Shown piece by piece: positions 31,986 through 48,435 of a stretch of DNA of 58,798 nt. The position numbers and the translations under genes are program-made. Position 1 is the stretch's first letter, and each line of letters starts with the position of its first letter. The notes beneath the pieces were generated by a model. That model had not been told where the DNA came from. It saw only the letters and a list, made by a program, of their open reading frames with translations, and did not search any database. Origin of the DNA: a virus (lineage: Duplodnaviria; Caudoviricetes); IMG/VR virus record IMGVR_UViG_3300031939_000002, positions 1 to 58,798 of that record; one strand, written 5' to 3'.

Positions 31986-31986
31986 G

Positions 31987-32060
31987 TAGTGCTGACAGGA
32001 CTCGAACCTGCGACACGACCCTTATAAGTGAGTCTGCTCTGCCAACTGAGCTACAGCACC
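31987..32060 (-). tRNA. tRNA gene, Ile(UAU)-like, 8-nt anticodon loop, no encoded CCA
   Basis: GGTGCTG TA GCTC AGTTGGCA GAGC A GACTC ACTTATAA GGGTC GTGTC GCAGG TTCGAGT CCTGT CAGCACT A folds as a cloverleaf; isotype uncertain. Confidence 0.85.
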
Positions 32061-44350: not shown

Positions 44351-44863
44351 TCAGTCCTCGCCGTCGTGGTCGCGGGCGGTGTAAAGCACCGCGGTGAGGC
44401 CTTCGGCCAGGGCCTGCATCTCATGCCGGACCTCGGTCACGGTCAGCTCGGGGCCGTGGACCAGGCGCTGCGCGTACTCCCGCCAGTGCTCAAGGCCGGC
44501 GCGCAGCCGCGCGGTCTCGATGTAGGCGAGCATCCCGCCGGTCAGCCGCAGGGTGCTGTCCGACAGTTCGAGCTGGCCGTCGTCGTCGAAGGTTCCGCGC
44601 GCGGTCCGCTGGAGGTGCAGGAAGCGCTGAGCCTCGCGGACGGACCCCTCCTGCTCCTTGTTGGGGAGTTCCAGACCCACGATCCTGACCTTGACGCTCG
44701 GCTCCTTCTCAGTGCCGGGCGCGGGCTCGGTGCGCTCGATCGCGGCGAACTCGATGATGGCCATGCGGCGCCCGCCGGGCTGGTCGTACAGGGGCCGCAC
44801 GTGCGGTTCCAGGGCTTCCTGGGCGCTCGCCGACACCTTGGCGTCGAACTTCAACTGGGTCAC
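44351..44863 (-). CDS. Hypothetical protein
   Basis: MTQLKFDAKVS; AAGGAG RBS. Confidence 0.7.
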   Translation of the reverse strand: MTQLKFDAKVSASAQEALEPHVRPLYDQPGGRRMAIIEFAAIERTEPAPGTEKEPSVKVRIVGLELPNKEQEGSVREAQRFLHLQRTARGTFDDDGQLELSDSTLRLTGGMLAYIETARLRAGLEHWREYAQRLVHGPELTVTEVRHEMQALAEGLTAVLYTARDHDGED

Positions 44864-45348
44864 GGCTGGGGCTCCTTGTGGAGGTCGTTCCAACGCCAGA
44901 CCTTGATGACGGCGCCGGGAGTGCGGAGAGCGTCGCCCCAGAGCACGTAGACCTTGGCGGCGGTGAGGGTGGCCACGACGCTGTCGTCGTGCAGCACGCC
45001 GGCGTCCGTGAGGGCGTCCTGGGTGGAGCGGACCAGCTTGTCCAGGTCGGGCTTGCCGGTCGGGATGTGGGGCGCGGAGGGCTTCAGCCGTCCCGCGTTC
45101 TTGCCCGTGCCGAAGTGGTGCTTCGGACGGCGCAGAGCGAACTGGATGTCGACCCAGACGGGGCCGTCGAGGGCCGTCCAGGCATCATCGTGGTGCAGGG
45201 TGTCGAGCGCGACCGACTTCACGGCATCACGCCACGGCTTCACCTTGGCTGACGACTCATACAGCGCTCCGGCGGCGTTGCGGTTCTTCGAGCCCTGCGG
45301 GCCCGGCGTGCCGTAAACGGTGATCTCGAAAGCAGGCTTGACCTTCAC
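44860..45348 (-). CDS. rusA: RusA Holliday junction resolvase
   Basis: GTPGPQGSK..KPWR..KPDLDKLVRSTQDALT..DDSVV. Confidence 0.92.
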   Translation of the reverse strand: MKVKPAFEITVYGTPGPQGSKNRNAAGALYESSAKVKPWRDAVKSVALDTLHHDDAWTALDGPVWVDIQFALRRPKHHFGTGKNAGRLKPSAPHIPTGKPDLDKLVRSTQDALTDAGVLHDDSVVATLTAAKVYVLWGDALRTPGAVIKVWRWNDLHKEPQP

Positions 45349-45707
45349 GTCTGGTCACCGCCGTCCGCTTGCTGGTCCAGCTCGTCAGCGGCGTACTGGA
45401 GGAGTGCAGCGAGCGGTGTGCCGCAGAGGCCGTTGACTTCGGCGATCGCTCCGCCTGCTCCGCCGGCCGCGATCAGCACGGTGGCGATGTCGGCCGGGGG
45501 CAGGGCGACCACGTCGGTGAGGTCGTCGGCGAGGCCTCGGGCCAGCCGGCCGAGGAACTGCACCTGCGGGTCGTAGCTGTTGCGGCGGCGGCTTTCCCGC
45601 ACCGCGTCGAACATGCCCTGCCGGGTGTATTGCTTGGCGGTGAACACGCGCAGGCCTGGCCTGGTGAACTCGCGGGCGACGGCGTCGCGGTGGTCTTCGG
45701 TGCTCAA
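45345..45707 (-). CDS. Hypothetical protein; probable TTG start (ORF is open back to 46151)
   Basis: CCAGGAGACCTC-TTG RBS/start; upstream in-frame region coincides with RNA repeats. Confidence 0.6.
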   Translation of the reverse strand: MSTEDHRDAVAREFTRPGLRVFTAKQYTRQGMFDAVRESRRRNSYDPQVQFLGRLARGLADDLTDVVALPPADIATVLIAAGGAGGAIAEVNGLCGTPLAALLQYAADELDQQADGGDQT

Positions 45708-45785
45708 GAGGTCTCCTGGGCGAGGACTGTGGTCGGGGGCGGCCGGGCTGAAGGCGGCGGAGCGCGCATCCAGCCCGGCCCGGGG

Positions 45786-46142
45786 CCCGTACGGCGCAGG
45801 TGGGGTCACTGGGGCCTCGGTTGACAGCCCCTCCCCCGCCTTCGCTCCCCTGGCGGGCACGCGCGGTCCCGGGGGTGGCGTTGACGCCGTACGGGTGGTG
45901 TTGGGCTCGCCCGGAGCAGGCCGGGTCGTGGGAGCCGAAGCAGATTGCGGCTCCTCGCTGGCCTTCGCTCCCGCAGCCGTGCAGATGGCGTCTGCGGGTG
46001 ACGTTGACTCCGGGCGAGTGGTCGGGGACCCGCCCGGCGCAGGCAGGGTCACCGGGGTGGAACGGACCGGCCCCTCTCCTGCCTTGGCTTCCGCGGCAAC
46101 CTCGTGCGGGGCTGCCGCGGGCGGCTTTGACGCCGGGCGGGT
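45786..46142 (-). ncRNA. Three tandem structured RNA units (three-way junction with kink-turn)
   Basis: Units 45786-45895, 45906-46018, 46028-46142; covarying 11-bp closing stems; conserved junctions; k-turn consensus in each. Confidence 0.7.
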
Positions 46143-46147
46143 GGTCT

Positions 46148-46636
46148 TCATCGCAGCCTCACCGAGCGGATCGTGAGGCCTGGCGTGGGGGCGGTACGGA
46201 CGTGGTCGGCGATCTCCCGCATCGACTCAGCCCAGGACGGGGAGAGGTCGCGCGGGGTCTGTCCGGCGAGCGCCTTGAGGATGTCGCCGTGCACGGTGTC
46301 GAGGAACGTGACGGGCTCTGGCAGGTTGCAGATCTCCGACAGGCCGACCTTGGTCCACTCCGGGTTCCATCCGGTGACCACGACCGGCCCGGCGTACGGC
46401 TGGACGGCGGCGCCGAACGCGGCGAGCAGGCACGAGCCGACGATGTTGCGCGGGTATCGGCTTGGGTCCAGCAGGCCGACGTCGTTGACCCAGCCGGTGG
46501 CGGCCAGGTCGCTGCGCAGGCTCACGCGGGCCTTGCCTTCGACGCCGATGACGGCGTCCCAGTCGACGTCTTCGGTACCGAAGCGGTCGCCGTGGTGGGC
46601 GAGTTCGCCGCTCGGGGTGATGACCGCGTACCTCAT
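46148..46636 (-). CDS. Hypothetical protein
   Basis: GWVNDVGL..YPRNIVGS..QPYAGPVVVTG. Confidence 0.7.
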   Translation of the reverse strand: MRYAVITPSGELAHHGDRFGTEDVDWDAVIGVEGKARVSLRSDLAATGWVNDVGLLDPSRYPRNIVGSCLLAAFGAAVQPYAGPVVVTGWNPEWTKVGLSEICNLPEPVTFLDTVHGDILKALAGQTPRDLSPSWAESMREIADHVRTAPTPGLTIRSVRLR

Positions 46637-47010
46637 CGCCGGCCACCTGCCGTCCCTGCCACTGTGGCGCGGTTGCCGGGCCGGTTCACGGTCGCCTCGG
46701 GACGGCTGCGGAGCTTGGCGACGGGCACCCATGCCCGCCAGGTCAGATCCGCGTCGTTGTCCCAGCTGACGAACACCATCGGGATGTGGTGGAACTCGCC
46801 GCCCAGGCACACGGTGGTGGTGGCGTAGTAGGCGCCGGGCACGTGCACGGGCTGGTCGGGCACGACGGTGCCTTCGCGGCCGGCGACGTGGGCGACACGG
46901 CTGCCCTGCGGGAACTGCGCGGCCAGAACCAGCAGGTGGTGTCGGCGCTCGGAGTCGTGCGGGCGGGTGCCGGCGTCGTAGCCCTGGTAGTCGAGCGTGC
47001 GGGCGCTCAT
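46633..47010 (-). CDS. Hypothetical protein
   Basis: Coupled ORF. Confidence 0.65.
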   Translation of the reverse strand: MSARTLDYQGYDAGTRPHDSERRHHLLVLAAQFPQGSRVAHVAGREGTVVPDQPVHVPGAYYATTTVCLGGEFHHIPMVFVSWDNDADLTWRAWVPVAKLRSRPEATVNRPGNRATVAGTAGGRR

Positions 47011-47666
47011 GATTGAGTCCCTTCGGTGATAAGGATGGGGGCGGCGCTGCCGCCGAGGAAGGCGGCGAGGATGCGCCAGTGGTCGTCCTCACGGACGGCG
47101 CGGGCGGTGAATGTTCCGGCCGGCCGGAACGACGCGTACTGACCCTCACGGATACGCCGGGCTGCTCTGGATGCCCCGCCGTAGGAGGTGTAGGGGCCGA
47201 TCGGGATTTGCGCGCCGGGCTGCTTCCGCATCCGGGCCGCGTGCGCCGCGTACCTGGCGTGCTGAGGCTTCGCCGCGCTGTGAGGCACCGCGTAGCGGAA
47301 GCCGGACAGCCACCGGTAGTGCGCGCCGATGGCGACCGCGTTCGCCATGTTCCTGGCGTTCAGTCGTGCGCGGATGTTCAGGCACAGGGTGCGCACCGTG
47401 TGCCCGGAGATCCCCAGGGTGCGTCCGATGCTGTCCTTGGTCTCACCGCTGGCGTACAGGGTGAGGACCTGGATCTCGCGGGGGGTGAGCGGGCACTTGG
47501 GCGCGGCAGGTCTGGAGGGGCCGTGTTCCGCGATGACCCTCTCGATCGCGTCGAGCGTCTTGAGGTCGCCGTCTCCCGACGCAGCGCCCCACAGGTCATC
47601 GATGAACGCGCTCAGCTGGTCGACGTCGAGCTTGGCGGCCCAGGGGAAGACGCGGGTGTCAGCCAT
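47007..47666 (-). CDS. LuxR-type HTH regulator with extra C-terminal domain
   Basis: PLTPREIQVL..GET..IGRTLGISGHTVRT..IRARLNARN. Confidence 0.85.
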   Translation of the reverse strand: MADTRVFPWAAKLDVDQLSAFIDDLWGAASGDGDLKTLDAIERVIAEHGPSRPAAPKCPLTPREIQVLTLYASGETKDSIGRTLGISGHTVRTLCLNIRARLNARNMANAVAIGAHYRWLSGFRYAVPHSAAKPQHARYAAHAARMRKQPGAQIPIGPYTSYGGASRAARRIREGQYASFRPAGTFTARAVREDDHWRILAAFLGGSAAPILITEGTQS

Positions 47667-47961
47667 GACGACCACCGCCCTGGCTGTCCTCCAGCCGGTG
47701 CAACTGCTGCTGCAGGAAGCGGATCTCGTTGCGCTGGCGGGCGACTTCGCCGACGTAGCGGGGCAGCGCCTCCCGGGCGTGCGCCACGAAACGGATGACA
47801 GGGACCTGGTACTCGTCCGAGGCGGTCTCCAGGAAGCTGATCGGCCCGACGCCGTCGGGCGCGCCGTAGTCGTTGGTGATCGGCTCCCAGGGGCCGTTGG
47901 GCACGGCCGCGATGTGCCGCTGCGTCTCGCGCAGGTAGTCAGAGGCCAGCGGCTCAGGCAT
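47659..47961 (-). CDS. Hypothetical protein
   Basis: PNGPW..FVAHAREALP. Confidence 0.65.
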   Translation of the reverse strand: MPEPLASDYLRETQRHIAAVPNGPWEPITNDYGAPDGVGPISFLETASDEYQVPVIRFVAHAREALPRYVGEVARQRNEIRFLQQQLHRLEDSQGGGRHG

Positions 47962-48187
47962 CTCGGCCGTCCTCGGCATCGAGAGCATCGAGGACGTGGC
48001 GGAGCGACTCGCACACGCCGCCGAACTCGCTGGCGAGACGGAGGGAGTGAGCGGTGGTCAGGTCAAGTGCGAGGGCCCGGTCGAGTGCCTCGCGCGCCAG
48101 AGCGCGAGCGATGTCGAGGGGCGGAACGAACGCCGGCAGGGTCGGCGGTCGGTCGGCTTGTGCGATGCTGGAATGCATCAGGCCCAC
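47954..48187 (-). CDS. Hypothetical protein
   Basis: Operon position. Confidence 0.55.
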   Translation of the reverse strand: MGLMHSSIAQADRPPTLPAFVPPLDIARALAREALDRALALDLTTAHSLRLASEFGGVCESLRHVLDALDAEDGRDA

Positions 48188-48249
48188 CTCGTTTCAGGTT
48201 GGTGGTTGGGCCGAGGGCTCGCCGGGTGCACGGCGGGCCCTCTTCGCTT

Positions 48250-48435
48250 TCAGGCGGCGGCCGGCATGTCCGGTCGGGCGGCTCCGCGATCGGCGGATTC
48301 CTCGGGTCCGATGGGGAGCAGGGTCCGGATCCGGTCAGCGGCGGCCGGCGTGAGCCGAGGGGCCGTGTCGGCGATTCGGCGGATGAAGTCCTGGACGGAC
48401 TCACCCGGCTGGATCTGGAGGGCCCGGTCGCTCAT
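48250..48435 (-). CDS. Hypothetical protein downstream of Cro
   Basis: IADTAPRLTP..DRIRTLL. Confidence 0.6.
   Translation of the reverse strand: MSDRALQIQPGESVQDFIRRIADTAPRLTPAAADRIRTLLPIGPEESADRGAARPDMPAAA

Follow-up and report, generated by a model that had tools for sequence, protein, structure and literature searches.

Among described RNA elements, riboswitch aptamers, lambda nutR and HK022 put lie in untranslated sequence, and interference is reported when nut is translated. ToxI-type repeats are pseudoknots of approximately 34-45 nt ahead of an endoribonuclease toxin, and Mu-gpT-DE in Rfam is an RNA motif beside a phage head gene. To our knowledge, candidate structured RNA families in actinophages are few. 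Kink-turns, in turn, are recognised by a consensus of a C-stem, a 3-nt bulge and tandem G-A/A-G pairs. This consensus is in line with the consulted excerpt of PMC5435971. Palindromic repeats of 100-150 bp, the Rickettsia palindromic elements (RPEs), occur both between genes and in coding regions, according to the available portion of PMC1779305. In the mitochondria of Nematomorpha, coding palindromes preserve a stringent secondary structure and an open reading frame (ORF) jointly, as given in the excerpt of PMC6649704. In phages, the csRNA candidates of Fremin et al. 2023 number more than 10,000, among which six are mentioned ahead of RusA and five ahead of a major capsid protein (PMC10690425). 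Here, a tandem array of three units is described on the minus strand of the window, the 58,798-nt stretch of tailed-phage DNA that was analysed (IMG/VR record IMGVR_UViG_3300031939_000002, positions 1 to 58,798; linear, approximately 75% complete, and contained in four sequencing runs, all of them soil-metagenome DNA and none RNA). By sequence comparison, these units are copies of a conserved Y-shaped module of Streptomyces-like actinobacterial phages and prophages that is uncatalogued in Rfam 15.

The positions of the units in the window were set by a covariance model built from the three units themselves. With filters off, this model gives only three strong matches over the whole window (E <= 3e-20), and the next-best match reaches 18.8 bits (E 0.057). 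Unit 1 (46022-46144, 123 nt) is closed by the helix P1 with arms of 12 nt at 46131-46142 and 46028-46039. Unit 2 (45899-46021, 123 nt) and unit 3 (45779-45898, 120 nt) are closed by arms of 11 nt, situated at 46008-46018 and 45906-45916 in the former and at 45885-45895 and 45786-45796 in the latter. All three units were delimited by the covariance model, an inverted-repeat search and folding. Directly after unit 3 lies a GC-rich terminal hairpin of 36 nt (45743-45778, minus strand), for which the repeat search gives the arms 45741-45756 and 45765-45780. The first-pass annotation, made from the letters alone, had placed three head-to-tail units on this strand with an additional hairpin beyond them, and both are present as placed. 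Its spacings of 120 and 123 bp hold in part: the closing arms lie 123 and 123 nt apart from start to start, and the value of 120 fits the conserved block inside the units and is also the length of unit 3.

The closing arms are perfectly complementary in all three units, with 88-91 nt between them. RNAalifold folds the three units into a three-way junction of 36 pairs, eight of which are changed on both sides among the units; four of these eight lie in the closing stem, where no position is broken, so that the perfect stems with compensated differences that had been proposed are recovered. Each unit folds better than all of its 200 shuffles (z of -4.2, -3.5 and -2.8 for units 1 to 3), and the 426-nt stretch as a whole folds into three separate Y-shaped units and a hairpin (z -3.6). 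Furthermore, the cognate P1 arms pair at 11 of 11 positions and the non-cognate arms at 8-10 of 11, and such a distinct P1 in each unit favours independent refolding of the units. ARAGORN reports nothing tRNA-like in the array. Elsewhere in the window, it reports one tRNA-like gene at 31986-32060 (minus strand), with no identity assigned and an odd two-base anticodon call, '(ta)'.

Around the junction, unit 1 carries UCAAA (46126-46130), and its P3 loop consists of AGA (46075-46077) facing GGU-GAC (46048-46053). The corresponding elements are UCAAC (46003-46007), CGA (45955-45957) and CAC-GAC (45925-45930) in unit 2, and UCAAC (45880-45884), GGA (45832-45834) and AGU-GAC (45805-45810) in unit 3. 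Located by script on the minus strand, these kink-turn-like loops, with their bulges GGU, CAC and AGU, agree with what had been read by eye, as do the UCAA(A/C) junction and the AGC(G/C)AAGGC block.

Relatives of the module were sought in IMG/VR, in JGI metagenomes and in a genome set with one representative of each species, first by DNA patterns and then by covariance-model searches. The patterns were limited to the P3 arm; therefore, P1 and P2 of the new matches constitute independent evidence. A first DNA pattern was too loose, yielding at least 118 loci with true units in seven. The pattern scan of genome contigs gave at least 120 loci, and among the matches listed only two relative loci, L205 and L250 (L-numbers denote such loci), held units, genome prevalence being under-sampled. 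L205 lies in the genome of Streptomyces echinoruber (G001). In the genomes of its genus, the covariance model finds one or two units per genome in 7 of 151, with a limited number of candidates scored per genome, and in two genomes checked individually it finds the prophage array only. In total, the model collects 68 units, 67 of them distinct, from phage, prophage and soil-metagenome DNA.

In the final alignment, standard pairs occupy 89.4% of the cells, compared with 71.2% in shuffled alignments and 34-44% with slid partners. Changes on both sides are found at 31 of the 36 pairs and in 342 cells versus 96 in shuffles, a value reached by none of 500 shuffles. P1 is paired in 96.6% of cells, and 10 of its 12 pairs covary; covarying pairs amount to 10/10 in P2, 5/7 in P3a and 6/7 in P3b, the distal part of P2 and P3b being inflated by the alignment procedure as considered below. 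Smaller, earlier alignments agree with the 68-unit alignment on covariation. A covariance search of relatives had been suggested as the check on the array, and it returns strong covariation in all four helices, as expected for a conserved structured element.

From 5' to 3', each unit comprises the closing helix P1, which is free in sequence, a CAA junction, the hairpin P2, a single A, the helix P3a, the kink-turn-like loop and the helix P3b. P3a is predicted to stack on P1 in the modelled Y-shaped fold. The conserved unpaired sequence of the family includes GCGUCAAC, UCACC, GGGAG, AAGGC, GAGG and GACCC..CCUGCGC. Between the G-C-rich P3b and P3a, an NGA / NNN-GA-C loop is present in all three window units and in nearly all aligned units. 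The two P3b pairs next to the bulge are G-C in 65/66 and 62/66 units, which corresponds to a canonical C-stem; exceptions to the kink-turn sequence include ACA in the first units of L058 and L086. With its C-stem, 3-nt bulge and tandem G-A/A-G positions, the internal loop of P3 matches the kink-turn consensus in sequence, so that the kink-turn assignment made earlier holds at this level, and the kinked geometry is a prediction.

The first-pass annotation had not recognised a known family in these units. Consistent with this, the best matches of the Rfam 15 models to window positions 45300-46500 are at chance level, far below gathering thresholds and with none meaningful at E <= 10, and ten single-unit loci give no Rfam 15 match at E <= 1. 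In the literature searched, no earlier description of the module was found; the candidate list of PMC10690425 may include it. A hammerhead-like ribozyme core was also considered and rejected, for the by-eye comparison with the consensus gives no match and no Rfam ribozyme matches.

The module occurs in two settings. In the first, 2-4 units form an array, and a few early-operon copies stand singly. At every array locus whose start was read, the array begins 1-2 codons past an ATG or GTG that overlaps a TGA ([A/G]TGA), and the overlapping stop belongs to the frame of the upstream gene in 6/6 arrays whose start is within the retrieved stretch. Units of the family measure 117-135 nt, and those of the array type are multiples of three in 37/39 (binomial P = 7.5e-16). 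Among the 16 units first examined, the lengths of the P2 arm and of the P3 arm each step by three only. Of 15 complete arrays, 13 have the frame from the ATG or GTG open from the first unit to the last; in such G+C-rich DNA, further frames are open as well. Meanwhile, the terminal 36-nt hairpin lies at the same place in 11 arrays, with 14 pairs, 92.8% of cells paired and 5 of the 14 pairs changed on both sides. Units within the arrays keep their positional identity across phages, for example by a CGUACG-type P1 in the last unit.

The array frame runs on into different genes. In the window, L114 and L121/L250, it continues into a 120-aa protein; in L035, L086, L058, L027, L137 and L330, it continues into a YqaJ exonuclease (confirmed by Pfam in 4/4 tested); and in L205, it continues into RusA. 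In L078, L334 and L310, it stops 56-68 nt past the array. A protein search for such longer proteins gives 16 Streptomyces proteins with the N-terminal repeat, comprising 14 YqaJ, one RusA and one with no Pfam family. The public fusion proteins measure 440-485 aa, and several are annotated by NCBI as members of the lambda-exonuclease family. Accordingly, the label of a merely apparent ORF is not upheld: given the multiples of three, the open frames and the three downstream families, the array frame in relatives is under selection. The suggestion of dual coding, made for the same ORF from the ATGA at 46151, is the better description. As judged from these sequence patterns, pairing and frame are both conserved in the arrays, which constitutes a dual constraint.

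Two relatives differ at the array-to-gene boundary. In L121 (709-900, plus strand) and in L250, which has the identical sequence, a remnant of the YqaJ N-terminus, GPAAPTARLLPPVSNPED, persists in the linker that joins the array to the 120-aa protein, and this looks like an in-frame recombination scar between two array contexts. In L163, the array is followed by a small Cys-rich ORF and a RuvC-like ORF (VLGLDLSMTASG...), read by eye, and not by YqaJ, RusA or the 120-aa gene; these ORFs would be a further downstream partner.

In the second setting, the module is a single intergenic copy. Among 27 such loci examined, the length is a multiple of three in 13, and many copies have stops in all frames or nearby stops on both sides. 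The distance from the stop of the same-strand upstream ORF is at most 13 nt in 13 of 23 loci and at most 60 nt in 16 of 23. This upstream ORF carries the Pfam Phage_capsid domain in 10/10 tested (E 1e-13 to 1e-57), although the sequences are quite diverse. Further single copies precede a small terminase subunit (L338) or lie close to HNH genes (L317, L141). Since the same module stands single and untranslated after major capsid genes, a general role in cis on the mRNA, not bound to the early operon, is indicated. Recoding at the capsid stop, by frameshift, readthrough or ribosome hopping over the units, was considered and rejected because the capsid frame has no fixed phase to the unit and the arrays are open anyway. 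Between a group of related capsid-downstream units (L329, L315, L319, L326 and L302) and the gene that comes next lie one or two further conserved hairpins, e.g., CCCCNGCCGCGAGCNGGGG and after it a longer stem.

The peptide encoded by the arrays behaves differently from their fold. Over 37 array units, unpaired columns have a diversity of 0.36/0.40/0.41 at codon positions 1/2/3 and paired columns one of 0.21/0.24/0.28, so that the paired status of a column outweighs its codon position. The excess of change at third positions, which purifying selection on amino acids would leave, is absent. Changes in the stems couple a synonymous replacement in one arm to a radical one in its partner (A to E, G to E, G to Y, G to D), so that G, E, Y and D are exchanged freely and the pairs are kept. 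On this comparison of sequences, the array peptide itself is not conserved or selected. Homologs keep the pairing and not the amino acids, the reverse of the outcome that the first-pass annotation had named as fatal to its RNA reading.

In the window, the array ORF (45345-46151, minus strand) encodes 268 aa, with the array in codons 1-148 and a 120-aa domain with no family after it (45345-45707). Its ATG (46149-46151) overlaps the TGA of the upstream gene (46148-46150) and is preceded, 5 nt upstream, by a GAGG Shine-Dalgarno-like box. Over codon positions 1/2/3, the G+C content hardly varies in the array part (0.72/0.76/0.77), whereas the C-terminal part has the profile typical of coding sequence (0.76/0.50/0.87); at third positions, the array value of 0.77 compares with 0.87-0.90 in neighbouring genes. 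The start signals of the 120-aa protein lie at 45705-45717 (minus strand) and consist of AGGAG (45713-45717) and TTG (45705-45707), which, like the ATGA at 46148-46151, were noticed earlier and are confirmed by reading the sequence. They are likely an independent start, because most homologs of the C-terminal part stand alone and align from residue 1. A search with the 120-aa domain gives 29 relatives at E <= 1e-3; most of them stand alone at 119-122 aa, and three (P0001, P0004 and P0024) bear N-terminal extensions of the array repeat. No Pfam or PHROG match is given by the 120-aa protein, no match to the GenBank phage collection by blastn of the array ORF, and no confirmed relative by an IMG/VR locus search with the 120-aa domain.

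Along the minus strand, the gene order is a GerE/LuxR and sigma-like regulator, a 125-aa ORF, a 162-aa ORF, the 268-aa array ORF and RusA. The 162-aa gene upstream of the array (46148-46636, minus strand) has no family, and a PHROGs search with its residues 9-162 gives nothing; it overlaps both of its neighbours, by its stop codon with the array start and by its ATG with the stop of the preceding 125-aa ORF. The ATGA overlaps at 46633-46636 and 46148-46151 (minus strand) link the 125-aa, 162-aa and array ORFs in series, which suggests tight translational coupling in the early operon. The next gene downstream encodes the Holliday-junction resolvase RusA (44860-45348, minus strand; Pfam PF05866, E 2.9e-12). 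It is followed by a phrog_15058 protein and then by an O-like replication initiator (PHROGs), in agreement with the position upstream of rusA and the initiator that had been claimed for the array. A scan of 45300-48300 finds no promoter-like site and, near the array, no G+C-rich hairpin with a U-tract terminator; the sequence downstream of the terminal hairpin is CCGCCCCC. Actinobacterial terminators may lack U-tracts. The sole terminator-like site in the scanned region, a 12-bp stem with a T-rich tail at 48213-48242 (plus strand), lies close to the divergent junction that precedes the regulator gene.

The reading that we favour, with about even chances, is a cis-acting structured RNA module, dual-constrained in the arrays, whose folding would be set by ribosome traffic. 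Such a module would act in cis on its own mRNA at a gene junction, starting a few nt past the upstream stop. In many phages, one untranslated copy follows the major capsid gene; in the window lineage, 2-4 copies and a closing hairpin lie between an early gene with no assigned function and the recombination and replication genes. Because the array ORF start overlaps the upstream stop, ribosomes finishing the upstream gene could reinitiate and read through. The module would fold once the terminating ribosome departs, while ribosomes crossing the array would transiently unfold the modules and the closing hairpin. With ribosome traffic determining folding, a host or phage factor may recognise the folded module via the junction and the kink-turn, and such recognition would set the use of the upstream versus the downstream message through 3'-end protection, processing or termination. 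The folded module might accordingly serve for 3'-end protection or as a processing site, an attenuator or a factor-binding site. The functions put forward in the first-pass annotation, namely a guide, antisense or decoy small-RNA array, a put-like antiterminator or an anti-defence RNA, are conceivable candidates as well.

Several observations weigh against this reading. Ribosomes would unfold the conserved structure, which places the constraints of fold and frame in tension. The alignments are fitted to the model, so that pairing in distal P2 and P3b is inflated, and P1 and P3a are unambiguous. Over the helices, G-U pairs number 46 versus 40 A-C mismatches, with no G-U excess, and the plus strand of the units folds about equally well; hence, pairing cannot tell RNA from single-stranded DNA. 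Hairpins with a folding energy of -20 kcal/mol or below that begin no more than 25 nt away follow 9/27 single units versus 45/156 random windows. With no such enrichment and no U-tract terminator at the array, a simple terminator role is unsupported, and a terminator after the single units was dropped as a candidate on the hairpin counts. The third units of L177 (8307-8433, minus strand) and L163 (6892-7018, minus strand) measure 127 nt, and a +1 insertion in the P3 loop breaks their frame. In L177, the fourth unit and YqaJ stay in mutual phase past the insertion, which could be a sequencing error, decay or a tolerated change. For RNA speak the fixed orientation with transcription, the free helices combined with conserved junctions and loops, the kink-turn-like loop, and the site right behind stop codons. 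From these features, we infer that the active form is RNA rather than DNA; translation of the array and a regulatory outcome are likewise inferred.

The same evidence bears on other explanations. If the array merely encoded a protein repeat of the usual kind, disordered, rich in Pro/Ala/Thr/Gly and forming an N-terminal extension or linker of early phage proteins, with incidental palindromes, then the open ORF with its good start and Shine-Dalgarno-like box, the unit lengths in multiples of three and the public annotation of 440-485-aa fusions as lambda-exonuclease/YqaJ proteins would all be expected. This is nevertheless highly improbable, as the changes are compensated at 31/36 pairs, copies of the same fold behind capsid genes are untranslated and have every frame closed by stops, the third-position excess of substitutions is missing, third-position G+C is 0.77 against 0.87-0.90 in neighbours, and most homologs of the 120-aa domain do not have the extension. 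Conversely, a purely non-coding RNA, such as a processed small-RNA array, a protein sponge, a put/nut-like antiterminator or tandem aptamers, would treat the frame as an accident of high G+C content. It accounts for the covariation, the conserved junction and the kink-turn-like loop, for the non-coding single copies and for the sRNA- or riboswitch-like layout of modules and then a strong hairpin, and other frames are likewise open in this DNA. It is contradicted by the multiples of three in 37/39 array units versus 13/27 singles, the arm lengths stepping by three in the units first examined, the conserved overlap of start codon and upstream stop, and a frame that runs on into three different gene families; we regard it as unlikely, if the least so of the alternatives. 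A further, more novel reading places a ribosome-read sensing aptamer or factor-binding switch inside the ORF, a coding riboregulator. In the early operon, the tandem copies and the hairpin would then form a checkpoint between immediate-early and recombination/replication genes, where ribosome passage versus a ligand or protein at the junction and kink-turn would decide on termination, processing or read-through, and a single copy after the capsid gene would likewise set the capsid-to-tail expression ratio. If true, phages would possess a gene-timing device of a new class, one that operates within an open reading frame; the probability of this reading is low, marginally below that of the selfish insertion treated next.

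A selfish palindromic insertion of the RPE kind would land at gene ends and survive within genes only in frame. Scattered contexts in unrelated phages with a core conserved at the nucleotide level, the existence of translated in-frame copies, and a size similar to the 100-150 bp of the intergenic and coding RPEs (excerpt of PMC1779305) make this conceivable. It is, however, rather improbable in view of the single locus per prophage and the one or two matches per genome (limited candidates scored in each). Conservation is lowest in the P1 ends, so that the copies share no terminal repeats; by reading, no target duplication is seen at the window unit boundaries, where no systematic test was made. 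Inner helices are maintained by compensatory change, and array units retain their positional identity across phages. A DNA-level element, in which hairpins or cruciforms form in single-stranded or supercoiled DNA, for example as a replication or recombination site by the YqaJ, RusA and initiator genes, draws on the lack of a G-U over A-C excess, the like folding of both strands and the location of the arrays in the recombination/replication module. Against it stand the orientation relative to transcription (strong ORFs flanking the units within 600 nt are co-directional by 26 to 1) and the conserved asymmetric loops, which fit an RNA kink-turn. The commonest context, directly after a capsid gene, is not expected for origins, and P1 differs among units, so that no single double-strand binding site exists. 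Such an element is thus improbable, yet less remote than the protein repeat.

With 67 distinct members, four covarying helices and a kink-turn-like loop, the module forms a new RNA family suitable for Rfam submission. A double-stranded DNA phage in which fold and frame are conserved and the peptide drifts offers a clean system for studying the balance of translation and RNA folding. The double constraint may explain the odd low-complexity N-termini on public Streptomyces YqaJ and RusA proteins. The tie to the 3' end of the major capsid gene suggests a general control of expression ratios in the long operons of phages of high-G+C hosts.

Compared with the described systems, the module shares with kink-turns the G-C-rich canonical stem (P3b), the 3-nt bulge, the tandem G-A/A-G positions and the second helix (P3a), but here the likeness lies in sequence consensus alone, and some loop positions double as codons (G-E, V/E/K-T). 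In the case of tandem aptamers and nutR/put, the common features are conserved junction nucleotides, free helices, tandem copies, an ORF before, and a strong hairpin and genes after, whereas no ligand, N-like protein or U-tract terminator is found at the window array. Type III toxin-antitoxin arrays of the ToxI kind likewise place tandem RNA repeats and a hairpin before a protein gene; however, the units here measure 117-135 nt, YqaJ, RusA or a 120-aa protein lies downstream, and the module also stands alone after capsid genes. Like the module, some phage csRNA candidates are structured elements beside the gene for a major head protein or for RusA (PMC10690425). Unlike the conserved phage RNA motifs already catalogued, the module matches no Rfam 15 family. 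RPEs are palindromic repeats of similar size that lie between genes and in frame inside genes (available portion of PMC1779305), but they are considered selfish and are interspersed through the genome in many copies, whereas the module has one locus per prophage, tandem copies, variable ends, a conserved interior and strong covariation in all helices. In Nematomorpha, structure and reading frame are kept together as in the module (PMC6649704). There, however, the fold is a long perfect inverted repeat, with conserved amino acids encoded by both arms and strong selection on the protein, whereas the module is a three-way junction whose array peptide shows no sign of such selection. None of the three closest analogues, the RPEs, the Nematomorpha palindromes and the RNA motifs beside phage head or RusA genes, unites a three-way junction that covaries with copies in tandem and in frame and with a peptide that drifts.

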